Positions 1,484 to 63,176 of a DNA stretch of 64,000 nt are shown piece after piece. Source of the stretch: a virus (lineage: Duplodnaviria; Caudoviricetes); IMG/VR virus record IMGVR_UViG_3300033073_001332, positions 64,001 through 128,000 of that record; one strand, 5' to 3'. A model generated the notes under the pieces. The model had not been told where the DNA came from. It ran no database searches and was given only the letters and a program-made list of their open reading frames with translations. A program made the translations under genes and the position numbers. Position 1 is the stretch's first letter. Each line of letters starts with the position of its first letter.

Positions 1484-1490
1484 TATTTAT
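1484..1490 (+). promoter_or_regulatory. TATTTAT putative late promoter
   Basis: Motif recurs upstream of 18 late genes. Confidence 0.65.
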
Positions 1491-1504
1491 ATAAAAAACT
1501 TGAA

Positions 1505-2236
1505 ATGAATAACTTTGGAACGATTAAAAGTAAATTAGAAAGGGCGAGTGTAGACTTGTTTGGTAAAAAAGAGTTTTCATCCTTTATGAATAACTTCAAA
1601 AGGGACATTTTAGAAAACAAAGATATAAGTGAAATTTATTTTATATATGACGACCTATCTTCAAAAAAAGGTATCGCAAAAGATATTGCAACTGACTATG
1701 TAAACGAATCGATTGAATATTGCCAAATCTTAATTGAAGGTAATAGAACAAAAATTAACCAAATCGATAAATGGATTTCTGATATTATTTCTGAAGTAGA
1801 TAACTCATATAATGTAATTGATACTTTAATTTACCAAAACTCTATAAAAAATTTAGAAAGCGTTTTAGAGTGTAAGAGAAAAGTTATCTCAACAATCATA
1901 TCTGAAGAAAACAAAAAACAAGTAAAAGAATCCATTCAACTACCTATTAAAACTATGGTTAAAGTTGCTGAAGATAATATTAAAAACCAACTTGAGTCTT
2001 TAACTGAATCCGAAAGAAAAGAAATAATCTCAATAGTATCCCTATCTAATGAAGAATTAAATAAGGAATTTAATGAGTTAAAAGAAAGTGTGATTTCAAA
2101 TTTAAAAACGTCTTTAAATGAATCTAAAGAAGATGATATGAAAAGTGTTATTGATAAAACAATATCAAAAATTTCAGATTCTAAATGCACACCATACGAC
2201 GTTTACAAACTTAGAAAGTTAAATTCAGGATTATGA
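1505..2236 (+). CDS. Hypothetical helical protein of head module
   Basis: 243-aa ORF after portal, preceded by TATTTAT motif. Confidence 0.7.
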   Translation: MNNFGTIKSKLERASVDLFGKKEFSSFMNNFKRDILENKDISEIYFIYDDLSSKKGIAKDIATDYVNESIEYCQILIEGNRTKINQIDKWISDIISEVDNSYNVIDTLIYQNSIKNLESVLECKRKVISTIISEENKKQVKESIQLPIKTMVKVAEDNIKNQLESLTESERKEIISIVSLSNEELNKEFNELKESVISNLKTSLNESKEDDMKSVIDKTISKISDSKCTPYDVYKLRKLNSGL

Positions 2237-2532
2237 GTTCAAAAAAATATTTCTTCGGGTGGGGTAATATTAAAAAAGGACTAACTGAATTAATAAGAAT
2301 ATATTCACACAAACCTTCATTTTTCTCCAAAAAAAGAATTGAGTCTGGAATAGCATTTATTATTGCGCAATGGGGGATGGTTTTTTATCTTTTAAAGAAA
2401 TACCCTGATTTATCTATGACAGATATAATTATGTGGGCATCCATAGAATTTGGGATATCAGGTTATATCCTACATCAAATCCAAAAAGAAAAAAAGGTTG
2501 AGGAGCCGACCGACAAAAATCAAGAAAGTTGA
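2233..2532 (+). CDS. Small membrane protein, 2 predicted TM helices (holin-like topology possible)
   Basis: Hydrophobic segments GIAFIIAQWGMVFYLL and IIMWASIEFGISGYIL, charged C-tail; ATGA overlap with upstream gene. Confidence 0.55.
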   Translation: MSSKKYFFGWGNIKKGLTELIRIYSHKPSFFSKKRIESGIAFIIAQWGMVFYLLKKYPDLSMTDIIMWASIEFGISGYILHQIQKEKKVEEPTDKNQES

Positions 2533-2711
2533 TTTCTTTTTTTCTGTAAGTAAATTGCCTTATTAACCTGACTTCTTTTTTTAACCGACTTCTTTGTAAA
2601 TTCTTGTCTATCACGCAATTGCTCTGATTGTTTTGTTTTATAAACTTTGAATTTATATTGTTTCAAAGCTTGTTCAATAGACGAGGCATTTTTTACTTTA
2701 ATAATAATCAT
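2520..2711 (-). CDS. rpsU: Phage-encoded 30S ribosomal protein bS21
   Basis: 63 aa, basic; IEQALKQYK..K, LRDRQEFTKKSVKKR, KAIY (Tyr54) match Bacteroidia-type bS21. Confidence 0.9.
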   Translation of the reverse strand: MIIIKVKNASSIEQALKQYKFKVYKTKQSEQLRDRQEFTKKSVKKRSQVNKAIYLQKKRNQLS

Positions 2712-2731
2712 ATTTTTTTTACTTTATTAAT

Positions 2732-2738
2732 ATAAATA
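2732..2738 (-). promoter_or_regulatory. TATTTAT putative late promoter (bS21)
   Basis: 20 nt upstream of bS21 ATG. Confidence 0.65.
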
Positions 2739-2755
2739 TACCAAAAAAATCCATT

Positions 2756-2787
2756 TTTGACAATTATCTTTTTTACAACTACATTTA
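2756..2787 (+). promoter_or_regulatory. Host-sigma (early/middle) promoter
   Basis: TTGACA(2757)-N17-TACATT(2780); also reads TTTG-N20-TACATTTA, similar to the Bacteroidota -33/-7 consensus. Confidence 0.6.
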
Positions 2788-2816
2788 ATAAAAAATAAAC
2801 TTGTAAGTTATGATTA

Positions 2817-3260
2817 ATGAAAAAAGGAAAAACATCAAAATTAAACATTTTTGATGATGCGAAATGTTTCTACGGAACGGTAGATTCAAAAAATATGAAA
2901 TCAATTTATGTAGTATTACAGACTTGGATAGAACCCATAACCATAGACGAAAATTGGAACAGATTAGTTGGTGAAATAAAAAGACAAATCCAACACACAC
3001 TTTTAGAAGTTATAGATACCCACACATTTGAAAGAAAACAAATAGTAGATTTAGATTTAAGGACAAGTGGAATTCAAAAGAACAAAAAAAGTTTTATGAA
3101 TTTAGAAATTACACTATTTGTTCATAATAAAACATTAGATTTCAAATCCCACATTTTAAGAGATAAAATTAAAAAAATGTTATCATCAATATATGTCGAT
3201 GATTTGAAAAACAATAAACATTTTACACTAAGTAAGACAAAAGTTGTAGAATTCAAATAA
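2817..3260 (+). CDS. Hypothetical protein
   Basis: 147-aa ORF downstream of a sigma70-like promoter. Confidence 0.7.
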   Translation: MKKGKTSKLNIFDDAKCFYGTVDSKNMKSIYVVLQTWIEPITIDENWNRLVGEIKRQIQHTLLEVIDTHTFERKQIVDLDLRTSGIQKNKKSFMNLEITLFVHNKTLDFKSHILRDKIKKMLSSIYVDDLKNNKHFTLSKTKVVEFK

Positions 3261-3266
3261 CCCTAA

Positions 3267-3273
3267 TATTTAT
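3267..3273 (+). promoter_or_regulatory. TATTTAT putative late promoter (prohead protease)
   Basis: In short intergenic gap. Confidence 0.65.
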
Positions 3274-3287
3274 TCATAAAAGAACTT

Positions 3288-3998
3288 ATGAGAATTTTAG
3301 GACCTAGTGATACAGGTAAAGGAATATTAGTCGAGTGGGATGCGGGGATTATTAACCCTAACGAAGCACGTAACCAAAGCGTTATTCAAGAATCTTATGG
3401 ACAATTAGAACATTCAAAACCATTTGTGTTTTATGCAACTCTACAGAAGTGGGGTGTTCCAAATAGAAACGGAAGGGTTTACCCTGAAAAAATATTAAGA
3501 AGAGAAGCTGAAAAATACCAAGATACCATTAAACGTGGTATGGCTATTTCGGAACTAAACCACCCTGAATCATCACTGATAGATTTAGATAGAGTTTCTC
3601 ACCTTATTACTGATATGTGGTGGGAAGGTAATGTTTTGATGGGTAAAATTAAATTACTTACAACACCAGGTTTCCATGAGAGAGGGGTTGTTTCATCAAA
3701 AGGTGATGTTGCAGCTAACTTAATGAGACAAGGTGTTACTATGGGTGTTTCATCTCGTGGGGTTGGTTCCTTAGTTAAAAATGGAGATAAGAATGAAGTT
3801 CAAGATGATTTTGAATTAATATGCTTTGACCTTGTATCTTCACCATCAACACCAGGTGCATATCTTTATTTGAATAAAGAAGATAGACCTAAATATGAAG
3901 AGAAGCTTGCAGAACATGACGCAACTAACTTCTCAGGTGGTGGGATGGAAAAATCTGTTGACTTAATGAAAAGATTAACCGATTATTTAGGAAGATAA
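3288..3998 (+). CDS. gp21: Prohead protease, T4 gp21-like
   Basis: NRNGRVYP, ELNHP (His), GVSSRGVGS (Ser), FDLVSSPSTPGA. Confidence 0.93.
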   Translation: MRILGPSDTGKGILVEWDAGIINPNEARNQSVIQESYGQLEHSKPFVFYATLQKWGVPNRNGRVYPEKILRREAEKYQDTIKRGMAISELNHPESSLIDLDRVSHLITDMWWEGNVLMGKIKLLTTPGFHERGVVSSKGDVAANLMRQGVTMGVSSRGVGSLVKNGDKNEVQDDFELICFDLVSSPSTPGAYLYLNKEDRPKYEEKLAEHDATNFSGGGMEKSVDLMKRLTDYLGR

Positions 3999-4008
3999 AA
4001 ATTTATAT

Positions 4009-4218
4009 ATGGACGAAAAATATTTTGTAGCAAAAATCACAACTGATATGGTTGATGATAACACAGGAAAAATTAAAAAAATTAGAGAAGAAAAACTTGT
4101 AAGAGGATTTTCACCTACAGATGTGGAAGCTAAAGTCACTAAGGCTTACGAAAGTTACTCAATGGATTGGAGAATTACTGCAATTGTTGAGAGCAAAATT
4201 GATGAGGTGATTGAATAA
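4009..4218 (+). CDS. Small protein resembling one DUF4494 half-domain (Bacteroidota family)
   Basis: YFVAKI..GKIKKIREEKLV..SPTDVEAKV..ITAIVESKIDEVI pattern. Confidence 0.5.
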   Translation: MDEKYFVAKITTDMVDDNTGKIKKIREEKLVRGFSPTDVEAKVTKAYESYSMDWRITAIVESKIDEVIE

Positions 4219-4236
4219 TTTTTTTTGTTATTTTCT

Positions 4237-4263
4237 AAGAGGGAACTTCGGTTCCCTTTTTTT
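4237..4263 (+). terminator. Rho-independent terminator
   Basis: AGAGGGAAC-TTCG-GTTCCCTTT plus T run; cUUCGg tetraloop. Confidence 0.9.
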
Positions 4264-4322
4264 ATGCCTTAATTTTTTTGGGATAAAAAACCTATTATAC
4301 GAATTTTTTTGAAAGAAGGATA

Positions 4323-4329
4323 TATTTAT
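4323..4329 (+). promoter_or_regulatory. TATTTAT putative late promoter (scaffold-capsid operon)
   Basis: After terminator, before scaffold ATG. Confidence 0.65.
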
Positions 4330-4368
4330 TTAGTAAAAATAAACGCGTAACGCATTGCATACAAAAAA

Positions 4369-5904
4369 ATGAGTTTAGAAAAAAACGAAAATTTAGTAGA
4401 GAAAGCTTTATTACAAATGAAGTCTATCGAGGAAGCTATAAGCGAAAATGCAAAAGGAATACTTGCTTCTACAATGAAGGAAGAAATCAGTGAACTAGTA
4501 AAAGAGTCATTATTTGGCTCAAAATCTAAAACATCTTTACACGAACAAGAAGAAGAAGGTTCTGAGGTCGAAATCGACACAGACGACGAAACAAACGATG
4601 GTGTAGAGGTAGACGACGCAGAAATTGAAGTGTCCCCTGAAGGAGATGAAGACATCTCTATGATGATGGGCATTGAAGGACCTGCCGATAACGAAGACGA
4701 ATTACCTCCTCTCGATATGACAGGTGCAAAACCTGACGAAGTGTTGAAAGTATTTAAGGCTATGGGTGATGAAGATGGGATTATTGTTGTTAAAGACGGT
4801 AATAACATTCACTTAACTGATAATAACACAGACACTGAATATTTTATCGATTTAGGTGACGATTCAGATATATCTATGGATGAACCTATGGAAGATATGA
4901 ATGAGAGTGTAATTTATGAATTAGTCTTCGAAGAAAAAGAAGGTGACGAAGAAATGGATGAATCATATGAAGATATGGACGAATCTTATGACGAAATGGA
5001 TGAATCATATGAAGATATGGACGAATCTTATGACGAAATGGATGAATCATATGAAGATATGGATGAGACTATTTATGAGTTGGAAGTTAACGAAACTATG
5101 AAACCTAAAGGTATGGGATTCGGAAAAATGAAGAATGGTTTACCTAAATCATCAGTTAATAACAAAGGGTTTGATGAAGATATGAAAGACGGGACAAAAT
5201 CTGAGAAAAAAGGTAAAGGTCCTAAATTTTCTTTCGGTAAAATCAAACATGGAGTTACTGAATCTGAAATGGACGAAGAGTTCATGGAAGGATGGATGGA
5301 TGAAGAAATGGTTGACGATTACAAAATGGAATCTGATTACATGGAAGGTGACTACATGGAAGGTGACTACATGGAAGGTGACTACATGGAGTCTGAACAC
5401 ATGGATGACAATACAGGTGAAACTACAGAAGCTTCAAGAACTATGACTTATAAAAGAAGAGCAGAAAGAGACAGAGTTGCGGCACCAAGTCAATTAAGAA
5501 AAGAATCATACAACAAAGAATTAAGTTTATTAAAAGAAAAGAACGAAGAGTACAAAAAGGCTTTAGACTTTTTCAGAAATAAATTAAATGAAGTTGCAGT
5601 ATTCAATTCTAATTTGGCATATTCTACAAGATTGTTCACTGAACACTCAACAACAAAACAAGAAAAAATAAACATACTTAGAAGATTTGATAACGTTGAG
5701 TCTATCAAAGAATCTAAATCTCTTTACAAGACAATTAAATCTGAACTTGATGGTAACAAATCAACTGACGTTGTTACGGAATCCATCCAAAGACAAGTTG
5801 TTAAAACACCTTCAAATGGTTCAGCATCTAATTTGATTGAAAGTAAAACTTATGAAAATCCTCAATTCTTAAGAATGAGAGATTTGATGTCAAAAATTAA
5901 ATAA
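4369..5904 (+). CDS. Prohead core/scaffold protein (gp22-like)
   Basis: Very acidic low-complexity middle, C-terminal coiled coil, position between protease and major capsid. Confidence 0.8.
   Translation: MSLEKNENLVEKALLQMKSIEEAISENAKGILASTMKEEISELVKESLFGSKSKTSLHEQEEEGSEVEIDTDDETNDGVEVDDAEIEVSPEGDEDISMMMGIEGPADNEDELPPLDMTGAKPDEVLKVFKAMGDEDGIIVVKDGNNIHLTDNNTDTEYFIDLGDDSDISMDEPMEDMNESVIYELVFEEKEGDEEMDESYEDMDESYDEMDESYEDMDESYDEMDESYEDMDETIYELEVNETMKPKGMGFGKMKNGLPKSSVNNKGFDEDMKDGTKSEKKGKGPKFSFGKIKHGVTESEMDEEFMEGWMDEEMVDDYKMESDYMEGDYMEGDYMEGDYMESEHMDDNTGETTEASRTMTYKRRAERDRVAAPSQLRKESYNKELSLLKEKNEEYKKALDFFRNKLNEVAVFNSNLAYSTRLFTEHSTTKQEKINILRRFDNVESIKESKSLYKTIKSELDGNKSTDVVTESIQRQVVKTPSNGSASNLIESKTYENPQFLRMRDLMSKIK
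4951..5063 (+). repeat. In-frame 42-bp tandem repeat (~2.7 copies) encoding (EMDESYEDMDESYD)n
   Basis: GAAATGGATGAATCATATGAAGATATGGACGAATCTTATGAC at 4951 and 4993, partial at 5035. Confidence 0.95.
5326..5390 (+). repeat. In-frame 15-bp tandem repeat encoding (MEGDY)n
   Basis: ATGGAAGGTGACTAC at 5341, 5356, 5371; degenerate copy at 5326. Confidence 0.95.
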
Positions 5905-5937
5905 ACAAATAAATAAACTCAAATTAAAAAAAATAAA

Positions 5938-7776
5938 ATGGGAGCATTATTAGAATCAGGTCTTGTTGGTAACATTGGTTTGAAACACCTTAAAGTTATC
6001 AAAGAAGATACAATTAACAAATGGGATAAATTAGGATTCCTAGATGGTCTTAAAGGACACATTAAAGAGAACATGGCTCAATTATATGAGAACCAAGCAT
6101 CTCACCTTATTAACGAAGCAGCGTCTACAGATAGCTCAGGTTCTTTCGAAACTGTAGTTTTCCCTATCGTAAGACGTGTATTCTCTAAATTGTTGGCTAA
6201 TGATTTAGTATCTGTACAGGCTATGAACTTACCAATCGGTAAATTGTTCTACTTTGTACCTAAGATTCAAAATTACAACACTGCAACTGCATATGACAAT
6301 CCTCACTTTGCACCAATCGGAGCACAAAACGGACCAACACCTGCAGAATCACAAGCGGCATATCCAGCATCATCTAAAAACCTTTATGATAGATTTTATG
6401 AAGGTACTGAGCCGGATTTAGACCCAGCAGGTTTGTGGGATTATTCTAAAGGTGCTTACACAGCTATCACTAAAGCGGCTGTTACTTATGTATGGTCAAG
6501 TGGACAATTAGTTGAAGGTGCTTACACTACAACTAATGGTGGTACTGTTAACGGAGCTACTACAGGTGGTCCTGTTCACAGAAAAGTAATTATCGCTCTT
6601 TCTGGTTTCACATCAGGTGGTGCTGGTAAATTAATCGGACCTGATGGTCAAGTTATGGATAACGAAGCATTCTTATCTGACTTACAAGTTAAGGCTTATG
6701 CTAACACTGTAGCTCAAGCGGCGTTCTCAGGTTTAGGTGTAAATACACCATTACTTTTCAGAGTTGTTACTCAAAAATATGGTAAAGGTATTGTTCAATA
6801 TGGTACTCAAACGACTACTACATGGCCAGGTACTGGTAACGGTGGTTCTTATGATAACCTTTGTGACGCAGCTGGTATCATCTACTTAGAAGTTGATACT
6901 CAAGTTCCTGCAGCAATCGGAGCAGCATCTTTAGATGGTTACTCAGGATTTACTTTAGGTGCTTCTGCAACACAAACTGACGGACAATTCTACTGTACTT
7001 ACAGAATCTACCAAGAATTGGAATTCGAAGACAGAATTGGTGAAGTTTCTTTTGACCTTGAGTCAGTTACTGTATCTGTTACAGAAAGAAAACTAAGAGC
7101 ACAATGGTCTCCTGAATTAGCTCAAGACGTTGCGGCGTTCCATAACATCGATGCTGAGGCTGAGTTAACTGCATTGTTATCTGAGCAAGTAGCTGCTGAG
7201 ATTGACCGTGAAATTTTACGTGACTTACGTAAAGGAGCGGCTTGGAATTTACGTTGGGATTACAACGGATGGAGAAGAATCAACGCAACTACTGCGTATA
7301 CACAAAAAGACTGGAACCAAACATTGATTACTGCTATCAACCAATTGTCAGCACAAATCCACAAGTCAACACTTCGTGGTGGAGCTAACTGGATTGTTGT
7401 ATCTTCTGAGGTTTCTGCGATTTTTGATGATTTAGAATACTTCCACGTATCTAACGCGTCTCCTGAGCAAGACCAATACAACATGGGTATTGAAAGAGTT
7501 GGTACATTAGCTGGTCGTTACCAAGTTTACCGTGACCCTTATTTCCCACCAAACACAGTATTGTTGGGTCACAAAGGTACGTCATTGTTAGACACTGGTT
7601 ACGTTTACGCACCATATGTTCCTCTACAATTAACACCTACAATGTATAACCCATTCAACTTTACACCAATCAAAGGTATCATGACAAGATACGCTAAGAA
7701 AATGGTTAACAACCGTTTCTATGGTAAAATCACAGTTGATGGAGTTAGAACATTTGACTTAAGAGAATTGAGATAA
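5938..7776 (+). CDS. gp23: Major capsid protein, T4 gp23-like, with large central insertion
   Basis: VSVQAMNLPIGKLFY, RKLRAQWSPELAQD, DAEAELTALLSEQVAAEIDREI, GYVYAPYVPL, GIMTRYA. Confidence 0.96.
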   Translation: MGALLESGLVGNIGLKHLKVIKEDTINKWDKLGFLDGLKGHIKENMAQLYENQASHLINEAASTDSSGSFETVVFPIVRRVFSKLLANDLVSVQAMNLPIGKLFYFVPKIQNYNTATAYDNPHFAPIGAQNGPTPAESQAAYPASSKNLYDRFYEGTEPDLDPAGLWDYSKGAYTAITKAAVTYVWSSGQLVEGAYTTTNGGTVNGATTGGPVHRKVIIALSGFTSGGAGKLIGPDGQVMDNEAFLSDLQVKAYANTVAQAAFSGLGVNTPLLFRVVTQKYGKGIVQYGTQTTTTWPGTGNGGSYDNLCDAAGIIYLEVDTQVPAAIGAASLDGYSGFTLGASATQTDGQFYCTYRIYQELEFEDRIGEVSFDLESVTVSVTERKLRAQWSPELAQDVAAFHNIDAEAELTALLSEQVAAEIDREILRDLRKGAAWNLRWDYNGWRRINATTAYTQKDWNQTLITAINQLSAQIHKSTLRGGANWIVVSSEVSAIFDDLEYFHVSNASPEQDQYNMGIERVGTLAGRYQVYRDPYFPPNTVLLGHKGTSLLDTGYVYAPYVPLQLTPTMYNPFNFTPIKGIMTRYAKKMVNNRFYGKITVDGVRTFDLRELR

Positions 7777-7794
7777 TCAATTAAATTGAATAAG

Positions 7795-7825
7795 AAAAAG
7801 GTCGGTTTATCCGACCTTTTTTTTT
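7795..7825 (+). terminator. Rho-independent terminator after major capsid gene
   Basis: AAAAAGGTCGG-TTTAT-CCGACC followed by T9. Confidence 0.9.
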
Positions 7826-7844
7826 GTCTAAGATATTTATTAAT

Positions 7845-8783
7845 ATGAAAAGAAAAATAAATGAGGCTACAGTAACAGGTGGTTCTAGAGGTTCATACAT
7901 CGCCCCATTATTACCTGGTGAAAGATATTTTAAAAAAAATATATTAGCTCCGTTTACAATACAAGATTCAAAGTATAAAAGCCCTGATTTGCAATATGAT
8001 TCATATGACGGTAAAATGGAAAGAAGTAAAAAACAAATAGGTAAAGAAGAAAAGATAGCTAATAAAATATATAATTTTATTAAGTATCATCCTGATGCCA
8101 CTTATAGTGACACTGAGGGTAATCCTATAAATCAGTATCCTGGTAAAAACAAAAATATTGTTCCAATTAAAGAATGGGTAGAATTAGATAGTATTAATTT
8201 GAACGAGACATCAACTTCAACAAGTGCTGGTATATATAATGGACCTGTTGCTATCGGTTTAAAAAAATGGAAAAAAAATGAATTAGACCCATATACTGAA
8301 TTTGTCGACACCACATTTAATCATAGTAAAAAACAAAAAACACTTAAAAACAATAAAAAAGGGTATGTTGGTCATTGGGAACCTAATAAAGATGGTTCTT
8401 ATAGATTAGACAATCATGAAGCGTATGCAATAAATGAAGATTTGGCGGTTTGGTTTGGAAAAAAGAAAAAACCAAAGGGGTCAAAACAACCAAAAGGGCC
8501 ATGGGTGAACATATGTAGAAAAGTGGATGGAAAACATCCACCTTGTGGTAGACCTGACACTTCTAAAGGTGCATATCCTAAATGTAGGGCTGCAGGTGTT
8601 GCTGGTAAAATGAGTGATTCTGCTAAAAGAGCTGCGTGTGCACAAAAAAGAAAGGCTGAAAAAAATGACCCACAATCGGGTAAAGGTCAAAAACCTGTGA
8701 TGACTTCATACAAACCAAAAAAGAAAAGGACCCAAAATGAGTCCTTAGAAAAAATTATTAGAAATATATTAAGTTCACTTTAA
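7845..8783 (+). CDS. Basic modular protein, probable internal head protein (start ATG 7845)
   Basis: TATTTAT 4 nt upstream of ATG; modules separated by INE/IKE/LNE; Cys-containing basic C-module (CGR..YPKC). Confidence 0.65.
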   Translation: MKRKINEATVTGGSRGSYIAPLLPGERYFKKNILAPFTIQDSKYKSPDLQYDSYDGKMERSKKQIGKEEKIANKIYNFIKYHPDATYSDTEGNPINQYPGKNKNIVPIKEWVELDSINLNETSTSTSAGIYNGPVAIGLKKWKKNELDPYTEFVDTTFNHSKKQKTLKNNKKGYVGHWEPNKDGSYRLDNHEAYAINEDLAVWFGKKKKPKGSKQPKGPWVNICRKVDGKHPPCGRPDTSKGAYPKCRAAGVAGKMSDSAKRAACAQKRKAEKNDPQSGKGQKPVMTSYKPKKKRTQNESLEKIIRNILSSL

Positions 8784-9247
8784 CAATAAGTTCCTGAACA
8801 TCTTTTTTTACCATCTAATCCTGGCATTCGACCTTTACATACTTGGACTGCATAACCATTGGCGTATGCACTTGGGTAAACATCGAACTTAGATTTAGCA
8901 GCCGCTTTACCACGAGCACATAATTTAGTACCTGTTTTCTTACGACCTTCAGACATAACCATATCTTTATCGTCTATGTTCATAGAAAGTTCCATACCAT
9001 CTCTTTTTGATTCATTCATTATAAAATCAAATACTTGGTCCATATTATTTTTTGCTTCAGCAATGTGGTCTTGAGCCCAATCATGACCATTATCTAAAAT
9101 ACCCTCTACCATTGATTGGTCTAAGTCTAATAACAAATCACATTGTCTTCTCATTTGTTCTAAATTAGAAAAGAACATATATCTATTAGACCTCATATCG
9201 TGGTCTTCTTTCAACACTTTTTTAATGATTGAATCTAAATTTTTCAT
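8780..9247 (-). CDS. Hypothetical head-associated protein with KFDVYPSAYANG module
   Basis: N-terminal IIKKVLKE; conserved-looking LCARGKAAAKSKFDVYPSAYANGYAVQVCKG. Confidence 0.6.
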   Translation of the reverse strand: MKNLDSIIKKVLKEDHDMRSNRYMFFSNLEQMRRQCDLLLDLDQSMVEGILDNGHDWAQDHIAEAKNNMDQVFDFIMNESKRDGMELSMNIDDKDMVMSEGRKKTGTKLCARGKAAAKSKFDVYPSAYANGYAVQVCKGRMPGLDGKKRCSGTYC

Positions 9248-9249
9248 AA

Positions 9250-10728: not shown

Positions 10729-10749
10729 GTTTGTTTTATCTATAAATAC

Positions 10750-12511: not shown

Positions 12512-12512
12512 A

Positions 12513-16453: not shown

Positions 16454-16457
16454 AATA

Positions 16458-51768: not shown

Positions 51769-51780
51769 GATATATAAATA

Positions 51781-53544: not shown

Positions 53545-53599
53545 AATATATTAAAATATAGTAAACATCTATAAAAAATCAATCAAAGTATTTATAGGT

Positions 53600-55158: not shown

Positions 55159-55320
55159 TTATTCGCCGTATATATCCTTAACTTCTTTGCAGTTTTCTGT
55201 AATAATTTTCTCTAAATATTTATACATCTTTAACCCATGTTTATCACAATAGTTCTTCAATAACATGTGAACTTCGGGTTTTATTTTAAGATTTTTTATT
55301 TTTTTTTGGTCTGTTTTCAT
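55159..55320 (-). CDS. Small ribbon-helix-helix DNA-binding protein (53 aa, not in ORF track)
   Basis: Manual translation MKTDQKKIKNLKIKPEVHMLLKNYCDKHGLKMYKYLEKIITENCKEVKDIYGE; beta-alpha-G-alpha RHH pattern; own TATTTAT motif. Confidence 0.7.
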   Translation of the reverse strand: MKTDQKKIKNLKIKPEVHMLLKNYCDKHGLKMYKYLEKIITENCKEVKDIYGE

Positions 55321-55358
55321 AAAGGTAGAAAAAAGGCAGAATTTATTCTTACTCCTTG

Positions 55359-55408
55359 ATAAATATTATCCTAAGGGAAAGTTTTTTGTAATCTGACGAT
55401 GTATTTAT
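55359..55408. promoter_or_regulatory. Back-to-back divergent TATTTAT promoters (RHH gene / tail sheath)
   Basis: ATAAATA 55359-55365 and TATTTAT 55402-55408. Confidence 0.7.
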
Positions 55409-55442
55409 ATAGAAAAATAAATTCTAAAACTATATTATTAAA

Positions 55443-58400
55443 ATGGCATCATCTAATAAAGTTTTTGTTTCACCAGGTGTATACACATCTGAAAGAGACT
55501 TAACGTTTGTAGCACAAAGTGTAGGTGTAACTACTTTAGGAGTTGTTGGTGAAACTTTACAAGGACCAGCATTTGAACCTATTTTCATCACTAACTTTGA
55601 CGAATTCCAAACGTATTTCGGTGGAACAAGTCCTGAAAAATTCGTTAACACCCAAATTCCAAAATATGAGTTAGGTTATATTGCAAAATCATACCTATCA
55701 CAATCCAATCAATTATTTGTAACAAGAGTACTTGGACTTTCAGGTTATGATGCGGGTCCATCTTGGTCAATTGTAACTATTGGTAATGTTAACCCCGCTA
55801 CAATTGCTGCGACAGGTACTACGGGTCCTGTAGCTGTTACATTTACAGGTACAACTGGAGGAACGGTAACATTAACTTCTGTACCATCATCAATCAACGT
55901 AGGGGGTAATTTTTATAACCCTTACACTGAATTCAATGGTGGAACTTCATCAATTGCATCTGATTTACAAAGTTATTTATCAACACAAATTAATTTATTT
56001 GCAACATCTTCATCTGCATCAGGAGCAACATCTATATTGTGGGGAACTTCAAGTGCATCAACACTGACTAGTGTTACTGGTGTTACTTCCCTTAACACTA
56101 TTACAGGTTCTACTGAAATGTTTGGTGTGAATAATGTGAATTTAGCGTACGCTAATTTATCAGCAGCAACAAACGACGCATGGTACTATGGATTATTTAA
56201 CTACTATCAAGGTACTAATGATGTGAATACTTACTACGGTCAAAGTTTAGGGGCATCCCTTTCAGGTATTTCAACAACACCTACAAGTGGTGTTTACTCA
56301 GGAACGGTTGCATTCTTTACTACCGCTTATTCAGGAGCACCTTATTCAACATACGATGATATGGTAGTTGCTACTTTAAGGTCTCGTGGTATATCAAACT
56401 ATAGTTCATCACAATCAGGACCATCATATGAAGTAACAGGATTAACTGATGTTTCAATGATTTGTACTGGTGGATATTCAGCGGTTACTAAAAACCCATA
56501 TTCGACATTCCAAATCTCAGGTGTTACATATGACGGAAATCCGTTCACGTTTGAAACTTCTATGTTGAATACAAACAAAAATTATGTTAGAAACGTATTT
56601 GGAGCATCTAACTTTGGTAAAGATAGAACTGAAGTTCCATTATTTGTTGAGGAAACGTATTCAGCACTTTTACAAACAGGATACAGAGCAGGTCAAATTA
56701 GAGGTTTATATTGTGATTTAGTTGCTCTTGATAAAGCACGTTCATTGAATACAGATAGTATTGGTTTCTACTTAGAACAATACCAAACACCAGAAACACC
56801 ATTTGTGGTTTCAGAACTTAGAGGTAATAAAGTATTCAAACTATTTAAGTTTGTTTTAATCTCAGACGGAAACGCGGCTAACACATACGTTAAACTTTCA
56901 ATTGGTAATATTTCATTCAATACTGGTACATTTGATGTATTTGTAAGAGACTTCTTTGATAATGACCAAAATGTTAAAGTATTAGAAAGTTTTACAAATT
57001 GTTCATTAGACCCATCACAAAACAATTATATCGCAAACAAAATTGGTACATCGAATGGTGAATACCAAGTTAAATCAAAATTTGTGATGTTAGAAATGAG
57101 TGATGAGGCACCGATAGACGCATTACCATGTGGTTTTGAAGGATACATTATGAGAGAATATGCAAATGCTACTCCTCCGTTTGTCCCTTACAAAACAAAA
57201 TATTACACAGCTGGTGAAACAATTTATAACCCACCATTCGGTTCAACAAGTGGAGGTGATAATCCTGTAATATCAAGTGGTGAAAATCCAAGAAGAGCTT
57301 ACTTAGGTATATCTAACATTACAGGATATGACTATGACTTCTTCCAATATAAAGGAAAACAATTACCAACAAACTTAGCAACAGATACAACAGGACCAGC
57401 ATGGGGTTACCTTACTAAAGGTTTCCACATGGATAGTGGAGCTACTGTAGTTACTATCACAAACGCATACGCAACTTCAGGACAATCCGCATTTGAAGTA
57501 GGAGTTGGAGCATTTAATTCAGAACCGACAGATACTTCAAATCCTTACTATAAATTAAACACTCGTAAATTTACGGTATTAGCTTACGGAGGTTTTGATG
57601 GTTGGGATATCTACAGAGAGTATAGAACAAATAGTGATTCATATGCTTTAGGTCAAACAGGTTTCAAATACGGAGCAGCAAGTTCACCAACATACCCAAC
57701 AGCAACAGGATGGGGAGCATTCAAAGCAATCTCAGGTCCTAACCAAGAAAGTTGGGCAAATACTGACTACTACGCTTACAAATGGGGTCAATCAACATTT
57801 GCAAATCCTGAATCAACAAATATTAACGTATTTGCAACACCAGGAATTGATTATGTAAACAACTCAAACTTAGTTGAGGATGCGATTGATATGATTGAAA
57901 CAGATAGAGCTGACTCAATTTACATTACAACTACACCTGACTTTAACATGTTCTTACCTTCATACCAAGACATTAGTGAAGGTTTGATTTACCCACAAGA
58001 GGCAGTTGACAACTTAGAAGGAACAGGAATTGATTCTAACTACACGGCAACTTACTACCCGTGGGTATTGACAAGAGATACGGTTAATAACACTCAAATC
58101 TACATTCCTGCAACTTCAGAGGTTGTAAGAAACTTAGCATTAACTGATAACATCGCGTTTCCTTGGTTCGCTTCAGCGGGTTACACAAGAGGTCTTGTAA
58201 ATGCAATTAGAGCAAGACGTAAGTTGACTCAAGATGATAGAGACACTCTATACAAAGGAAGAATCAACCCAATCGCTACTTTCTCTGATGTGGGTACGGT
58301 AATTTGGGGTAACAAAACAATGCAAATTAGAGAATCTGCGCTTGACAGAATTAATGTAAGAAGGTTGTTGTTACAAGCTCGTAAATTGATTTCAGCAGTA

Positions 58401-58655
58401 GCGGTTAGATTATTGTTTGAACAAAACGACAACAAAGTAAGACAAGACTTCTTAGATTCAGTTAACCCAATCTTAGACCAAATTAGAAGAGACAGAGGTT
58501 TGATTGACTTTAGAGTTCAAGTTTCTAACACACCTGAAGATTTAGATTCAAATACATTGACAGGTAAAATCTTCTTAAAACCAACAAGAGCGTTAGAATA
58601 CATTGATATCGAATTTGTTATCACACCAACAGGAGCGTCATTTGACAACATCTAA
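55443..58655 (+). CDS. gp18: Contractile tail sheath protein with large insertion
   Basis: SPGVYTSERD, GPAFEP, F..YFG, WFASAGYTRG, RINPI, WGNKT, RINVRRLL, PTRALEYI. Confidence 0.95.
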   Translation: MASSNKVFVSPGVYTSERDLTFVAQSVGVTTLGVVGETLQGPAFEPIFITNFDEFQTYFGGTSPEKFVNTQIPKYELGYIAKSYLSQSNQLFVTRVLGLSGYDAGPSWSIVTIGNVNPATIAATGTTGPVAVTFTGTTGGTVTLTSVPSSINVGGNFYNPYTEFNGGTSSIASDLQSYLSTQINLFATSSSASGATSILWGTSSASTLTSVTGVTSLNTITGSTEMFGVNNVNLAYANLSAATNDAWYYGLFNYYQGTNDVNTYYGQSLGASLSGISTTPTSGVYSGTVAFFTTAYSGAPYSTYDDMVVATLRSRGISNYSSSQSGPSYEVTGLTDVSMICTGGYSAVTKNPYSTFQISGVTYDGNPFTFETSMLNTNKNYVRNVFGASNFGKDRTEVPLFVEETYSALLQTGYRAGQIRGLYCDLVALDKARSLNTDSIGFYLEQYQTPETPFVVSELRGNKVFKLFKFVLISDGNAANTYVKLSIGNISFNTGTFDVFVRDFFDNDQNVKVLESFTNCSLDPSQNNYIANKIGTSNGEYQVKSKFVMLEMSDEAPIDALPCGFEGYIMREYANATPPFVPYKTKYYTAGETIYNPPFGSTSGGDNPVISSGENPRRAYLGISNITGYDYDFFQYKGKQLPTNLATDTTGPAWGYLTKGFHMDSGATVVTITNAYATSGQSAFEVGVGAFNSEPTDTSNPYYKLNTRKFTVLAYGGFDGWDIYREYRTNSDSYALGQTGFKYGAASSPTYPTATGWGAFKAISGPNQESWANTDYYAYKWGQSTFANPESTNINVFATPGIDYVNNSNLVEDAIDMIETDRADSIYITTTPDFNMFLPSYQDISEGLIYPQEAVDNLEGTGIDSNYTATYYPWVLTRDTVNNTQIYIPATSEVVRNLALTDNIAFPWFASAGYTRGLVNAIRARRKLTQDDRDTLYKGRINPIATFSDVGTVIWGNKTMQIRESALDRINVRRLLLQARKLISAVAVRLLFEQNDNKVRQDFLDSVNPILDQIRRDRGLIDFRVQVSNTPEDLDSNTLTGKIFLKPTRALEYIDIEFVITPTGASFDNI

Positions 58656-59792: not shown

Positions 59793-59799
59793 TATTTAT
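59793..59799 (+). promoter_or_regulatory. TATTTAT putative late promoter (tail tube)
   Basis: TGACGA-TATTTATA context shared with sheath promoter. Confidence 0.65.
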
Positions 59800-59833: not shown

Positions 59834-60322
59834 ATGGCTGATTTGTTAATGAAAATGCCCTTTCAATATGAACCTAAAAGAAAAAATAGGTTTATTATTA
59901 CATTCCCATCTTCTTTGGGGATTAATTCTTGGTATGTAGAAAGTGCTTCAAGACCAAAAATTGAGATTAAAGAAACACCAATTCCATTTTTGAATACTGA
60001 AACTTATGTTGCTGGTCAATTTAAATGGGGTTCAATTGATGTTACTTTCCGTGACCCAATCGGACCTTCTGCTTCTCAAGCTTTAATGGAGTGGGTACGT
60101 TTACACGCTGAGTCTGTAACAGGTCGTATGGGTTATGCTGCTGGTTATAAAAAAGATATTGACCTTGAAATGTTGGACCCAACAGGTGTAGCTGTTGAAA
60201 AATGGATTCTACAAGGTACATTCTTAACAAGTGTTGATTTTGATTCTTTAGGTTATAGTGAAGATGGTTTAGTTACGGTTAAAGCAACTTTAAGACCTGA
60301 CAGATGTATCTTAGTTTACTAA
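59834..60322 (+). CDS. gp19: Tail tube protein, gp19-like
   Basis: EPKRKNRF, RP, YVAG...W, YKKDI.LEMLDPTG..VEKWIL.G.F. Confidence 0.88.
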   Translation: MADLLMKMPFQYEPKRKNRFIITFPSSLGINSWYVESASRPKIEIKETPIPFLNTETYVAGQFKWGSIDVTFRDPIGPSASQALMEWVRLHAESVTGRMGYAAGYKKDIDLEMLDPTGVAVEKWILQGTFLTSVDFDSLGYSEDGLVTVKATLRPDRCILVY

Positions 60323-60373: not shown

Positions 60374-60416
60374 ATTTACATAAACTAAAGTCAAGTTATT
60401 TTTAAAGAAAAAAATT

Positions 60417-61175
60417 ATGGACAAAAGCGCTCAATACGGTCAAATGGATTTTAATCTTCCACATGATATGGTATCATTACCATCTAAAGGTATTTTTTAC
60501 AAACCAAAAAAAGAAAGTTTAAAAGTTGGGTATCTCACTGCGACTGATGAAAATATTTTGATGTCAAACATCATATCACAAGAAGGATTCGTTCAAACGT
60601 TATTAAGACAAAAAGTTTATGAACCTGGCTTTGACGTTTTACAATTATTGAATTGTGATGTGGAAGCTATTTTAATTTATTTAAGAAATACTTCTTTTGG
60701 TGATTTATATGAATTTAAAGTTAATGACCCCAAAACTAATATCAAGTTTGATGTATCAATAAAATTAGACAGAATAAGCGTTAAAGATGCAGAACAAACC
60801 CCTGATGAGAGTGGACTATTTAACTTTAGATTGCCTAAGTCTGGTAATAATGTAAAACTAAGATTATTAAATTTAGGTGATACAATTTATTTAGAAAAAT
60901 TACAAGACAAATACCCACAAGGTATGGTTGCACCGATTATCACTAGTCGTTTAGAAAGAGCAATTGTTAGTATTGATGGAAATGAAGACAGAGAATTTAT
61001 TTCAAAATTCATTACTCAAATGCCGATTATAGACTCCAAAGAAATAAGAAGATTCCTTAAAACATGTGAACCACAATTAGACTTAAACAGAAAAGTAAAA
61101 GCCCCGTCAGGAGAAGAAGTGACTATAGATTTCACTTTTGGGGTTGAATTTTTTCGTCCTTTCTTCTCAATATAA
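60417..61175 (+). CDS. Tail assembly chaperone / baseplate hub assembly protein (gp26-like)
   Basis: LPSKG..Y, LTATDENIL, LIYLRNTSFG, LPKSG, ends EFFRPFF; lies between tube and tape measure. Confidence 0.7.
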   Translation: MDKSAQYGQMDFNLPHDMVSLPSKGIFYKPKKESLKVGYLTATDENILMSNIISQEGFVQTLLRQKVYEPGFDVLQLLNCDVEAILIYLRNTSFGDLYEFKVNDPKTNIKFDVSIKLDRISVKDAEQTPDESGLFNFRLPKSGNNVKLRLLNLGDTIYLEKLQDKYPQGMVAPIITSRLERAIVSIDGNEDREFISKFITQMPIIDSKEIRRFLKTCEPQLDLNRKVKAPSGEEVTIDFTFGVEFFRPFFSI

Positions 61176-61185
61176 AAAAAATTTA

Positions 61186-61308
61186 ATGGATGAAATGTAT
61201 TACTTGGTTAAGTATGCCAATTTTTCTTACGAGGATTTATTAAAAATGCCAACTTTTGAAAGAAAGTATTTTGTCGAGAAGTTGATTGAAGAGTCAACTA
61301 AAAAATAA
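61186..61308 (+). CDS. Small ORF (40 aa), probable frameshift extension of the tail chaperone (gp51/GT-like)
   Basis: MDEMYYLVKYANFSYEDLLKMPTFERKYFVEKLIEESTKK; this frame is open from 61129, overlapping the end of the upstream gene. Confidence 0.7.
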   Translation: MDEMYYLVKYANFSYEDLLKMPTFERKYFVEKLIEESTKK

Positions 61309-61336
61309 TTTTTTATCTATTTATAATTAAAAAGCT

Positions 61337-63139
61337 ATGTTTTTTGAAGTAGATGGTAATACAGATGCATCAGTCTCTAAATTTGAAAATCTTTCAAAAC
61401 AAATTGATACTTTACAAAGTAAATTAAAAAGTTTTGTAATTGGTACTGATATGGAGGCGGTTTATGAAAACGTCTCAAAACAATTTGTTTCAATGAACGA
61501 TAATGCCACCAAACTTGTTAGAAGTATGGGTGGTGTATTTTTGTCAACAAAAGATTCTGCTACATATGCGAATGCATTCAGAAGCAGATTAATGGAGGCT
61601 GTTGAGGTTAATAAAGAGTTAGGAGCAACCTTCAAAGATGCTAATGAAACGGTTCAATCATTATCCGCCGCGATGGGCAGAATGGTAAACCCAAGTGCTG
61701 CGGTGGTTTCAGATATGATAGTAATGGCAAAATCAACGGGACTATCAAACGCTGAAATTGGAGGTATGGTTGCCAACATTTCTAAGTTTAAAGGTACACA
61801 AGCAGATGCCTTAGATATGATGAGTGACATTGCAATGGAAGCAAGAAAAACGGGTATTAATACTGCTGCTTACATGAAGTCAGTTAATGAAAATATTAAA
61901 AAAGCATCAGGATTTGGTTTTAAAAGTGGTATTGAAGGTGTAAAAAACATGGCAAAACAAGCGGCGATGCTTAGAACCAATATTGAAAGTATCGGAGCAA
62001 AAGGTCTACAAGCTAAGATTTTAGACCCTGAAGGTGCTATTGAAGCTGCGGCACAATTTCAAATGTTAGGAGGAGCGGTAGGGAAATTAGCAGACCCATT
62101 CCAACTATTGAATATGGCTCAAACAGACATGGAAGGTTTACAAAATGAATTAGTCAAGTCAACTTCATCCGCATTTAAATTTAATCAAGAATCTGGTAGA
62201 TTTGAGGCTTCAACTCAAGATTTATATAGATTAAGACAACAAGCGGAAATTACAGGTGCAAACTTCGATGAGATGTTAGAAGCAGGAAAAGAGGCAGCTA
62301 AGTTAGATTTTTTGAAAAATGCTGTTGATTTATCTGGATTAAATGAGGAACAAAAAGGTTTAATCACAAGTTTGTCCGAAATTGGTACAGACGGAAAAAT
62401 AATGTTTGATTTACCAGGTTACGATGAGCAAGGTAAAAATCTTCAAGAATTGATGAAAGACGCTAAATTCAAAGCCGAATTAGATAAATATCAAATGAAG
62501 GAAGGTTTATCTGAAAAACAAATTGCTATTGATTCGATGACTATCGAAGAAGACCAATTAGCCGCTTTATTGGAAATACAACAGGCGGTTGTTTTAGGTT
62601 TAGATTCCTCATCTCAAGAAAAGTTTAGAGAAAATTTAATGACGGCAAATAAAAACGCCGCAGCTCAAGGAACATCATTGGCTAATGAACTTAAAAAAAT
62701 GTCAGGTGAATATGCGGGTTTAAGAGCTGGTGTTGATGCTAAATTTCCCGAAAAAAAGGTTGAAATTGCTGAAGATACAAAAAACGAAGCGGAAAATGCA
62801 ATTACAGCTTTAAAAGAAAAACTTGGAATTGAGGATGGTCTTTTTCCTGCAAACGGCTCCGCCCCAACAATTTTAAAAAGAGGTGCAATTTACAAAGGAA
62901 TTGCAACTGATGATGTTGCTGTTGGTGAAGGGTTAGGTAAAGCACTTAATACTATTTCAAGTGGAGGTGGAAATGTAGGTGGAAAAATAGATATCAATAT
63001 TAATTTAAATGGCTCAATTGCGGGAGACCCGGGTCAAATTACAAAAATGTTTAATTCACCACAAGTTCAAAAACAAATAATGGATACTGTATTGTACAAG
63101 TTGAATGATTATAAAAAACAACAAGGGGTTCTCGCCTAA
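61337..63139 (+). CDS. Tape measure-like protein
   Basis: Ala/Met-rich helical 600 aa following tube and chaperone. Confidence 0.7.
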   Translation: MFFEVDGNTDASVSKFENLSKQIDTLQSKLKSFVIGTDMEAVYENVSKQFVSMNDNATKLVRSMGGVFLSTKDSATYANAFRSRLMEAVEVNKELGATFKDANETVQSLSAAMGRMVNPSAAVVSDMIVMAKSTGLSNAEIGGMVANISKFKGTQADALDMMSDIAMEARKTGINTAAYMKSVNENIKKASGFGFKSGIEGVKNMAKQAAMLRTNIESIGAKGLQAKILDPEGAIEAAAQFQMLGGAVGKLADPFQLLNMAQTDMEGLQNELVKSTSSAFKFNQESGRFEASTQDLYRLRQQAEITGANFDEMLEAGKEAAKLDFLKNAVDLSGLNEEQKGLITSLSEIGTDGKIMFDLPGYDEQGKNLQELMKDAKFKAELDKYQMKEGLSEKQIAIDSMTIEEDQLAALLEIQQAVVLGLDSSSQEKFRENLMTANKNAAAQGTSLANELKKMSGEYAGLRAGVDAKFPEKKVEIAEDTKNEAENAITALKEKLGIEDGLFPANGSAPTILKRGAIYKGIATDDVAVGEGLGKALNTISSGGGNVGGKIDININLNGSIAGDPGQITKMFNSPQVQKQIMDTVLYKLNDYKKQQGVLA

Positions 63140-63176
63140 AAAATCTAAAACAATCTATTTATCATAAAAAGACTAA

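Follow-up and report, generated by a model that had tools for sequence, protein, structure and literature searches.

Placement and orientation of the TATTTAT word

The short word TATTTAT, or its 8-bp form TATTTATA, recurs immediately before genes in a 64,000-nt stretch of phage DNA (hereafter, the window), which raises the question of whether it is a promoter and, if so, which polymerase holoenzyme reads it. An initial annotation of the window had listed 18 such sites, and all of them were found to carry TATTTAT on the strand assigned, each 4-39 nt sense-upstream of an ORF. That the word contains only A and T, in a genome of 32% G+C, speaks for a chance by-product of A+T-rich spacers, as does its lack of over-representation across the window as a whole: TATTTAT was observed 37 times compared with 50.3±6.8 in shuffles, and TATTTATA was observed 18 times compared with 13.8±3.7. 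Given that these window-wide counts are unremarkable, the signal consists of placement and orientation.

When the whole genome (219,553 bp) was scanned, 70 of 135 TATTTAT copies were intergenic and lay sense-upstream of the next gene start, and 46 of 64 copies of TATTTATA were likewise intergenic and pointed at the next gene start; intergenic DNA makes up 4.5% of the genome. Within genes, the copies were balanced between the strands (31 sense, 29 antisense). In the spacers upstream of genes, 63 copies of TATTTAT were observed, compared with 7.4±2.8 expected and a maximum of 17 in 1000 simulations under a first-order Markov null modelled on these same spacers (78% A+T). In co-directional spacers, 45 copies were sense and 4 antisense (binomial p=8e-10). 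The orientation bias that the initial annotation had proposed to look for genome-wide was found. Among all 7-mers in sense-oriented upstream DNA, TATTTAT was the most enriched (64 observed vs. 2.0 expected); as a positive control, the same pipeline recovered ATAAATA in T4. Moreover, the box before the prohead protease gene (position 3267) was unchanged in 45 of the 46 distinct relatives compared, although the sequences flanking it in these diverged orthologous leaders were variable. The spacer null, the strand bias, and the leader conservation together refute a chance origin, to which we assign next to no probability.

The initial annotation had also pointed to one ATAAATA, the T4 orientation, before the capsid gene at 5909. 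This copy is present, but it is not conserved; comparison of relatives revealed it to be one variant of a variable, AATAAA-rich capsid leader.

Box sites in the window and the genes that follow them

In the head-gene region, the plus-strand TATTTAT(A) box at 1484-1490 directly follows the stop codon that ends the portal (gp20-like) gene and is separated by 14 nt from the ATG that opens ORF 1505-2236. Further plus-strand TATTTAT boxes are located at 3267-3273, with the prohead protease (gp21-like) gene (3288-3998) starting 14 nt further on, and at 4323-4329, 39 nt before ORF 4369-5904; the capsid gene (5938-7776) lacks a separate box and is probably served by the latter as well. Downstream of the capsid gene, an intrinsic-terminator-like hairpin (plus strand, 7800-7825; stem AAAAGGTCG/CGACCTTTT followed by a T-run) ends about 13 nt before the plus-strand TATTTAT box at 7834-7840, from which the ATG at 7845 (ORF 7845-8783) is 4 nt away. 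The order across 7800-7845 is therefore terminator, box, and ATG, a leaderless-type spacing.

On the minus strand, a box with a trailing A (2732-2738) lies 20 nt before the ATG of the small ORF 2520-2711, a TATTTAT(A) box (10742-10748) lies 13 nt before ORF 9250-10728, and a TATTTAT box (14883-14889) lies 4 nt before ORF 14510-14878 and starts 5 nt past the stop codon of the sigma factor gene discussed below. Two further minus-strand TATTTAT(A) boxes are found at 50657-50663, 12 nt before ORF 49523-50644, and at 51774-51780, 5 nt (a leaderless-type spacing) before ORF 50680-51768, which encodes an Fe/Mn superoxide dismutase domain.

Two pairs of boxes are divergent. In the first, a minus-strand TATTTAT(A) box (41609-41615), 14 nt before ORF 40851-41594, forms the left half, and a plus-strand TATTTAT box (41628-41634), 11 nt before ORF 41646-43796, forms the right half. 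In the second, the left half is a minus-strand TATTTAT box (55359-55365), 38 nt before a 53-aa ORF (55159-55320), and its partner is a plus-strand TATTTAT(A) box (55402-55408), with the tail sheath (gp18-like) gene (55443-58655) beginning 34 nt downstream. The remaining plus-strand boxes are of the TATTTAT(A) form at 43818-43824 (12 nt before ORF 43837-45906), 53589-53595 (4 nt before ORF 53600-54115, again a leaderless-type spacing), 59793-59799 (34 nt upstream of the gene for the gp19-like tail tube, 59834-60322), and 61318-61324 (12 nt before ORF 61337-63139), and of the TATTTAT form at 63156-63162 (14 nt before a 2042-aa ORF starting at 63177). Several copies were not on the initial list: a second plus-strand TATTTATA at 59729, 98 nt before the tube gene; a plus-strand copy at 55217; and two antisense copies, at 39077 and 39081, that adjoin a terminator hairpin.

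Genome-wide, boxes were found upstream of 61 of 222 genes, and genes within tightly packed operons had none. Boxed genes include homologues of T4 gp20, gp21, gp18, gp19, and gp25(+gp6), as well as a giant fibre gene. In contrast, no box was detected before the polB, SNF2 helicase, primase, gp32, UvrC-like, DenV-like, ClpB-like, or Dam genes; scanning for TATTTAT also confirmed its reported absence before the glycan block. The initial proposal of an oriented, lone box that precedes virion genes and spares replication genes was thus borne out. Some boxed genes, namely many small ORFs at genome positions 1-60 kb and the one with the superoxide dismutase domain, have no evident late function, and hence the class that we call late may really be middle plus late.

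Form of the box and predicted transcript starts

A frequency table of 59 aligned sites carried information only at rTATTTATA and at a downstream A-run; no conserved upstream or -35 element was seen, the interval from -35 to -5 (counted from the box) being unremarkable. We expect the box to act alone, as a -10-type element with no -35 counterpart, and to be recognised on the non-template strand.

Box-to-ATG distances ranged from 4 to about 40 nt, with peaks at 4-5 nt (20 sites) and 12-14 nt (17 sites). In the leadered class, A occupied the fifth, sixth, and seventh positions past the 8-mer in 33, 33, and 30 of 37 sites, respectively. Host boxes in Flavobacterium johnsoniae lie 4-5 nt from the transcription start (PMC6847099). 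If the phage box is used like these host -7 boxes, transcription would begin at an A 4-5 nt past the 8-mer; about one third of boxed mRNAs would then begin at or beside the AUG and thus be leaderless, and most of the others would carry an A-rich leader of 7-10 nt. Such short, A-rich leaders would fit the Shine-Dalgarno-free translation of Bacteroidota. If T4 spacing held strictly (5 nt from box to start), transcription in the 4-5 nt class would begin within the ATG itself. Overall, the spacing suggests that many boxed mRNAs are leaderless.

The proximity of the box to start codons and its two sharp distance peaks could also be explained if it acted on RNA, as a translation enhancer, a ribosome standby site, or a processing or repressor site, with transcription starting elsewhere. 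Bacteroidota do translate without Shine-Dalgarno sites and need A/U-rich leaders (PMC6847099), and AU-rich RegA sites occur at T4 start codons. However, only the minority of genes noted above are boxed, and tightly packed operon genes lack the box; its distance from the ATG varies both within this genome and between phages (see below). In form the word is a -10-type TATA box, and it co-occurs with a dedicated sigma family. In addition, six boxes lie downstream of a perfect hairpin with a T-run, five of them by 12-14 nt and one by 43 nt, and in four of the six the ATG is only 4 nt past the box. If these hairpins work as terminators, the box is the only candidate promoter there, since the five closely spaced sites leave no space for another. 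A purely RNA-level role is therefore improbable in our judgment.

A divergent sigma factor as candidate reader of the box

The minus-strand ORF at 14895-15647 encodes a 250-aa protein (P0001) that the initial annotation took for a gp55-like sigma factor with a divergent region 2. Our analyses support the assignment to sigma region 2. Pfam Sigma70_r2 matched 51 of 70 members of the protein family, and the significant matches in a PDB profile search were sigma factors, T4 gp55 (7d7c_F) among them. When the family profile was searched against all six frames of T4, gene 55 was the best and only match (E=0.003). Direct comparison of P0001 with gp55 by hhalign aligned residues 25-136 with residues 8-124 (E=1.4e-4, probability 53%). 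An AlphaFold2 model (pLDDT 91.5) had cellular and phage sigma factors as its best Foldseek matches. P0001 is nonetheless not a plain gp55: gp55 has about 185 aa and ends in SLDFLYEAND, whereas P0001 has an extra four-helix C-terminal domain beyond region 2, ends in a long helix (...YLDTLRKIHNQ), and lacks that T4-type clamp-binding tail. No gp45-type clamp was found with Pfam DNA_PPF or gp45-slide_C, nor was any match obtained by blastp with T4 gp44, gp45, and gp62, in a contig that is about 75% complete.

In T4, the late promoter TATAAATA at -13 to -6 is read by gp55, with gp33 as co-activator and gp45 as sliding clamp; A(-12) and A(-8) are held in deep pockets of gp55, and A(-9) in a shallow pocket formed by N13 and H95 (PMC2988020, PMC7892883). 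In an alignment of moderate confidence, the gp55 -12 pocket residues Y97, F86, R57, and L54 align with Y109, F98, R70, and I67 of P0001, whereas the -9 pocket residues N13 and H95 align with V30 and Y107, and T99 (-8) aligns with G111. P0001 thus appears to keep the residues that hold A(-12) and to differ at the shallow -9 pocket, but this pocket argument is tentative given the hhalign probability and a one-residue difference between hhalign and MAFFT near gp55 N13.

The sigma gene closes a long box-free block, a position from which the sigma would be made before the late class is switched on. By homology and co-occurrence, the product of ORF 14895-15647 is a candidate reader of the box.

Host-type promoters and a second sigma factor

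A second, canonical RpoD-like sigma gene with Pfam regions 1.2, 2, and 4 lies outside the window, at genome positions 189211-190026, and was not seen in the initial annotation. The box might therefore be the promoter of another holoenzyme, formed either with this full phage sigma or with the host primary sigma reading a variant of TAnnTTTG. Primary-sigma promoters of Bacteroidota consist of -33 TTTG and -7 TAnnTTTG elements, and in F. johnsoniae T-7 and G-5 are nearly invariant (PMC6847099). The host box resembles the phage box in being 8 bp long, beginning with TA, and lying equally far from the inferred start, in the same host phylum. Aligned in the host register, TATTTATA matches T-12, A-11, T-8, and T-6 of the F. 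johnsoniae consensus, with no G at -10/-9, and its spacing to the ATG is at most 1 nt off that of host-type boxes in this genome.

However, where the Bacteroidota sigma-A box has T-12, A-11, T-8, T-7, T-6, and G-5, TATTTATA has A-7 and A-5, so that it lacks both near-invariant bases, and the upstream TTTG or AT-rich element of such promoters is missing too; a sigma with region 4 should leave a -35/-33 signal. Genuine TAnnTTTG boxes occur elsewhere in the genome before non-virion genes, including several of the unboxed genes listed above, and some lie 4-5 nt from the ATG. The two kinds of box thus mark different gene sets and segregate by gene function. Moreover, the cultured Flavobacterium phage immuto and Microcystis phage Mel-JY01 have the same box and the gp55-like sigma family, and no canonical (PF04542-detectable) sigma gene was found in either. 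Taken together, these data make recognition by another holoenzyme unlikely, if less so than a role in RNA.

The box in related phages

When 80 related contigs were pooled, 256 sense and 41 antisense copies were counted. In the late region of immuto, the box was the top upstream 7-mer (14 observed vs. 0.55 expected), and in Mel-JY01 it ranked second. The ATG follows the box by 12-26 nt in immuto. In Mel-JY01 this gap reaches about 40 nt, and the box precedes ordinary GGAG-type Shine-Dalgarno ribosome sites, so that it is separate from the translation signal. A box directly past the sigma gene was found in four phages, namely the studied phage, immuto, Mel-JY01, and RM378, the last with the form TATTTAAA. 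In contrast, LR756508 encodes a close homologue of the sigma but has an apparently different recurrent box, indicating that membership of the sigma family does not fix box specificity. Related sequence was also present, as assembled contigs, in RNA runs.

Relation to the T4 late promoter

The initial annotation described the box as the reverse complement of the T4 late promoter. This is arithmetically true but mechanistically misleading, and reading both in the same orientation is preferable. Because the outer TAT...ATA is palindromic, the two can be set in the same register, in which TATTTATA is the T4 box with its central AA changed to TT; a change at just these two positions yields the reverse complement. 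Six of the eight positions of the T4 box, T(-13)A(-12)T A A A(-8)T A(-6), are the same in TATTTATA, A(-12) and A(-8) included. On the non-template strand, T4 has TATAAATA whereas this phage has TATTTATA, the T4 orientation being that of the 4 copies rather than the 45 in co-directional spacers. T4 late promoters are likewise lone 8-bp TATA-type boxes with no -35 element and A+T-rich DNA downstream, and in T4, too, some 50-60 of them per genome precede virion genes, with sites on both strands. The box-ATG distance differs (3-13 nt here, 14-28 nt in T4), again implying leaderless mRNAs or very short leaders. In T4, the box stands roughly one helical turn from the start, and transcripts made late in infection begin about 6 nt past it.

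Other T4-related phages have variant late boxes. That of cyanophage S-PM2 reads NATAAATA. In Aeromonas phage Aeh1, the variant has a/gC at -13/-12 (PMC2988020). These two variants alter the upstream edge of the box, whereas the studied phage alters two central positions. Thus, across the T4 superfamily, gp55-family specificity has drifted but the lone-box architecture has been retained. A literature search found no paper reporting the present box.

We consider it probable that TATTTATA is a lone late promoter of virion genes, read by host core polymerase together with the sigma encoded by ORF 14895-15647. Such a promoter would be a two-base variant of the classic T4 late switch, in a ~220-kb T4-like phage of Bacteroidota. 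More speculatively, the studied phage, immuto, Mel-JY01, and RM378 may belong to a clade of T4-related phages of Bacteroidota and their allies in which late transcription would depend on a re-specified gp55-family sigma, with an added C-terminal domain replacing gp33 and the sliding clamp, would be uncoupled from replication, and would yield many leaderless late mRNAs.

Genomic distribution of the TATTTAT(A) box

In this study, the box TATTTATA, that is, the 7-mer TATTTAT with its eighth base, TATTTAT(A), was analyzed in a phage contig of 219,553 bp (32% G+C, ~75% complete as estimated by CheckV), of which the window spans bases 64001-128000. The initial annotation had listed 18 such boxes upstream of genes, and each was confirmed to carry TATTTAT on the strand given, 4-39 nt before an ORF on the same strand. 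Across the entire window TATTTAT was not in excess, with 37 copies compared with 50±7 in shuffled sequences, and the 8-mer was counted 18 times versus 14±4; the evidence for the box rests on the position of its copies and not on their window-wide abundance. When genes were called by a simple longest-ORF approach (222 genes, 95.5% coding), 70 of the 135 genomic copies of TATTTAT were found to be intergenic (4.5% of the DNA) and aimed at the next gene, and five intergenic copies were not so aimed. Inside coding DNA there was no bias (31 sense, 29 antisense). Moreover, TATTTAT was the most enriched 7-mer of sense-oriented upstream DNA, at 64 copies versus the 2.0 expected from genome frequency. 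With a first-order Markov null built on the spacers' own composition (78% A+T), 63 copies were observed versus 7.4±2.8, and the maximum reached in 1000 simulations was 17. In spacers between co-directional genes, orientation was 45:4 (p=8e-10). As a positive control, the same pipeline was applied to T4 bases 75-125 kb and returned ATAAATA as the top word. Taken together, these data indicate that the signal is almost certainly real, and that the box is very likely a promoter.

Phage affiliation and gene classes

The major capsid protein encoded in the window is of the gp23 type (Pfam Gp23, E=1.7e-73), and blastp revealed homologues of T4 gp17, gp20, gp21, gp23, gp18, gp19, gp25, and gp6. The closest named phages by capsid protein were Flavobacterium phage immuto, Microcystis phage Mel-JY01, and Rhodothermus phage RM378, at 35-43% identity. 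E. coli-type sigma-70 promoters were below expectation in window 1-20000 (85, compared with 104±9 by chance), and were rejected as candidates. Given that they were not enriched, and that Bacteroidota-type TAnnTTTG boxes are present in the genome, the host is most likely a member of the Bacteroidota.

Among the proteins encoded behind a box were the portal, the prohead protease, the tail sheath, the tail tube, the 3197-aa fibre, and gp25, whose gene has gp6 after it. The gene that precedes the capsid gene was boxed as well, as was the 2042-aa ORF with which the window closes. Genes in the window without the box included polB, the SNF2 helicase, and a 24-kb glycan block on the minus strand, the last gene of which encodes P0001, a gp55-like sigma of 250 aa (window 14895-15647, minus strand). 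Outside the window, the box was likewise missing from the genes for primase, gp32, the UvrC-like, DenV-like, ClpB-like, and Dam proteins, and a second sigma; several of these unboxed genes bear TATaTTTG or TATcTTTG boxes. This split is what late and early classes would give. No late function was evident for some boxed genes, namely that of a protein with a superoxide dismutase domain and many small ORFs. The dismutase-domain protein (window 50680-51768, minus strand) has 362 aa; an unassigned N-terminal part of 160 aa precedes a complete Fe/Mn superoxide dismutase domain, which occupies the C-terminal half. The box before its gene has leaderless-type spacing. The 284-nt spacer before the sheath gene (window 55159-55442) contained three boxes (55217+, 55359-, and 55402+) together with a 53-aa minus-strand ORF (55159-55320). 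Sequence that is tRNA-like by appearance (e.g. ...GTAGCTCAGCTGGATAGAGCA...GGTTCGAATCC...) was also noticed before two small ORFs, at genome ~216,920-217,018 and ~219,478-219,553.

Anatomy of the box and spacing to the start codon

When 59 sites were aligned, information was confined to rTATTTATA followed by an A-rich stretch; the eighth base of the box was A in 38 of them, and neither a -35 nor a -33 element was present in this alignment. Spacing between the 7-mer and the ATG was bimodal, with sharp maxima at 4-5 nt for 20 sites and at 12-14 nt for 17 sites; the distribution tailed off to ~40 nt. Of 37 sites with longer spacing, 33 had A as the 5th base after the 8-mer, 33 as the 6th, and 30 as the 7th; in the short-spacing class, the A of the ATG occupies this same place. 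In Flavobacterium johnsoniae, the -7 box of the host-type promoter spans -12 to -5, with 4-5 nt between it and the transcription start (PMC6847099), and the ATG was also located 4-5 nt downstream of five host-type TAnnTTTG boxes in the phage genome. If transcription were to start at the A beyond the box, about one third of the boxes would yield leaderless mRNAs, and most others would yield A-rich leaders of 7-10 nt. We consider the chances about even that the box gives leaderless starts. Transcripts of probable early genes behind short-spaced host-type boxes, such as the UvrC-like and Dam genes, would likewise lack a leader, because a box-to-start spacing of 4-5 nt is known in Flavobacterium. 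TATaTTTG or TATcTTTG boxes with the ATG 4-5 nt on were observed outside the window at genome 9454, 13678 (minus strand), 199274, 201547, and 218000, among others.

A perfect hairpin with a T-run was found to precede six boxes, with a gap of 12-14 nt in five. In four of the six, including the box at window 7834, the ATG was 4 nt downstream. If these preceding terminators are functional, the box would be the sole possible promoter for the genes concerned.

Conservation of the box in related phages

In the leaders of protease genes from IMG/VR relatives (82-95% protein identity), TATTTAT was invariant in 45 of 46 distinct leaders; variation was seen in how the upstream gene ends, in its stop codon, and in the 13-15 nt on the downstream side. 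When 80 loci were pooled, orientation in co-directional spacers was 256:41, a count in which the loci are related and not independent. TATTTAT was also the top upstream 7-mer in the late region of immuto (14 versus 0.55), where boxes precede terminase, portal, structural-protein, and sheath genes, and it ranked second among upstream 7-mers in Mel-JY01. The Mel-JY01 boxes lie 13-40 nt before start codons with GGAG-type ribosome sites. That the box is kept though translation signals differ argues against a role at the RNA level. At equivalent places in RM378, TATTTAA(A) was found sense-upstream of many genes. The 484-kb uncultured phage LR756508 (LR756508.1 151982-193520) encodes a sigma closely related to the gp55-like one (E=1e-37); the word repeated before its genes, the capsid gene among them, seems to be of the (T/A)AACTTAA type instead of TATTTAT. 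Upstream motifs in genomes with this sigma family include TATTTATA, TATTTAAA, and, apparently, the AACTTAA type of LR756508.

The capsid gene itself was without a box. The initial annotation had pointed to an ATAAATA at window 5909 as a motif in T4 orientation before this gene, but as a promoter it was rejected, being unconserved in relatives, some of which have a sense TATTTATA in its place. The capsid leader (window 5905-5937) ends ATAAACTC(A/T)AATTAAAAA...ATG. This end was kept across 40 relatives, and the AATAAA repeats before it varied; it may serve as a signal for translating the most abundant protein of the virion. Seven public RNA runs contained related sequence, as assembled contigs; contig depth was high at the capsid gene in the four examined, none of which gave usable 5' ends. 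In contigs of two metatranscriptome runs (window 5337-8004), summed depth over the capsid gene was up to ~1000, versus <10 over its neighbours. This depth agrees with high expression, though it is confounded by gene conservation.

P0001 belongs to a family of gp55-like sigma factors

Single-sequence queries with P0001 against Pfam, PHROGs, the PDB (phmmer), and phage records (tblastn) returned nothing significant or annotated, and homology was detectable only with a 70-member profile. The family comprised 1083 clusters at 50% identity (E≤0.001), and its named members in the protein-cluster search were labelled 'hypothetical protein'. Pfam Sigma70_r2 matched 51 of the 70 aligned members. When the family profile was searched against the PDB, the significant matches were sigma factors (cyanobacterial SigA, E=0.0025; an ECF-type sigma), and T4 gp55 (7d7c_F) appeared at E=0.094. 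Against the six frames of T4, the best match was gene 55 (E=0.003); the sole other match, at the 5′ end of gene 55, was negligible (E=0.64). By hhalign, P0001 25-136 aligned with gp55 8-124 (E=1.4e-4, probability 53%), and more weakly, over region 2 only, with the canonical sigma of the phage (E=0.055). Moreover, the best Foldseek matches of the AlphaFold2 model of P0001 (pLDDT 91.5) were sigma factors, both solved and viral. Unlike T4 gp55, P0001 has a further four-helix C-terminal domain and is without an SLDFLYEAND-type tail. A gp45-type clamp was not found on the ~75% complete contig with PF02916, PF09116, or T4 gp44, gp45, and gp62 as queries.

The canonical sigma (genome 189211-190026, plus strand) has Pfam regions 1.2, 2, and 4 in its 271 aa, is RpoD-like, and could be proposed as the reader of the box. 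In a PF04542 scan with working controls, this second sigma gene and, weakly, P0001 were detected in our genome; a canonical sigma was detected in RM378 but in neither immuto nor Mel-JY01. As a single-protein query, run without a positive control, the RpoD-like sigma had no match in the relatives. The gp55-like family, on the other hand, was found in all four phages. Given this distribution, it is the gp55-like sigma, not the canonical one, with which the box co-occurs. In addition, a box directly follows the gp55-like sigma gene in this phage, immuto, Mel-JY01, and RM378 (as TATTTAA(A) in the last). RM378 has an annotated canonical sigma beside its capsid gene, separate from its gp55-like homologue. 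From these sequence comparisons, we favor the gp55-like sigma as the probable reader of the box, which would serve the late class.

Comparison with T4 late transcription

Promoter recognition by a minimal sigma has its textbook example in the late transcription of T4. The system described here probably works in the T4 manner, with a lone box and a minimal phage sigma that acts together with the core polymerase of the host, but the box has another sequence and the sigma lacks the clamp motif at its C terminus. The initial annotation had called the box the reverse complement of the T4 late promoter box TATAAATA. Although literally true, this relation holds only because TAT...ATA is palindromic; the informative form is a change of the central AA to TT in the same orientation.

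The T4 late box spans -13 to -6 (PMC2988020). In the gp55 cryo-EM structure, a deep pocket accommodates A(-12), which stacks against Y97; N13 and H95 form the walls of a shallow pocket that holds A(-9), and T99 makes a hydrogen bond with A(-8). L54, R57, and F86 also contribute to the pocket walls (PMC7892883). When TATTTATA is placed in the T4 register, A(-12) and A(-8) are retained, and -10 and -9 are altered. In the alignment, gp55 Y97, F86, R57, and L54 corresponded to P0001 Y109, F98, R70, and I67, respectively, and N13, H95, and T99 corresponded to V30 (or D29), Y107, and G111. An aromatic residue (Y or F) at the H95 position was common to the immuto, Mel-JY01, RM378, and LR756508 homologues. 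With an alignment of moderate quality, these differences would fit a change of specificity at the centre of the box.

No report of TATTTAT(A) as a phage promoter was found in the literature searched, subscription journals being outside its scope. With AA replaced by TT at the centre of the box and other residues at the gp55 -9 pocket positions, the system would represent a natural change of specificity; given that box and pocket both differ, the structural model of gp55 (PDB 7D7C) is directly testable by residue and base swaps. Since Flavobacterium phage immuto has a cultured host, the system can be tested at the bench. The box offers a simple rule for recognizing transcription units and likely late genes in the abundant, mostly unannotated Bacteroidota phages of freshwater and marine environments, and its spacing suggests that late mRNAs with no leader, or almost none, are widespread in a phylum where translation is independent of Shine-Dalgarno sites.
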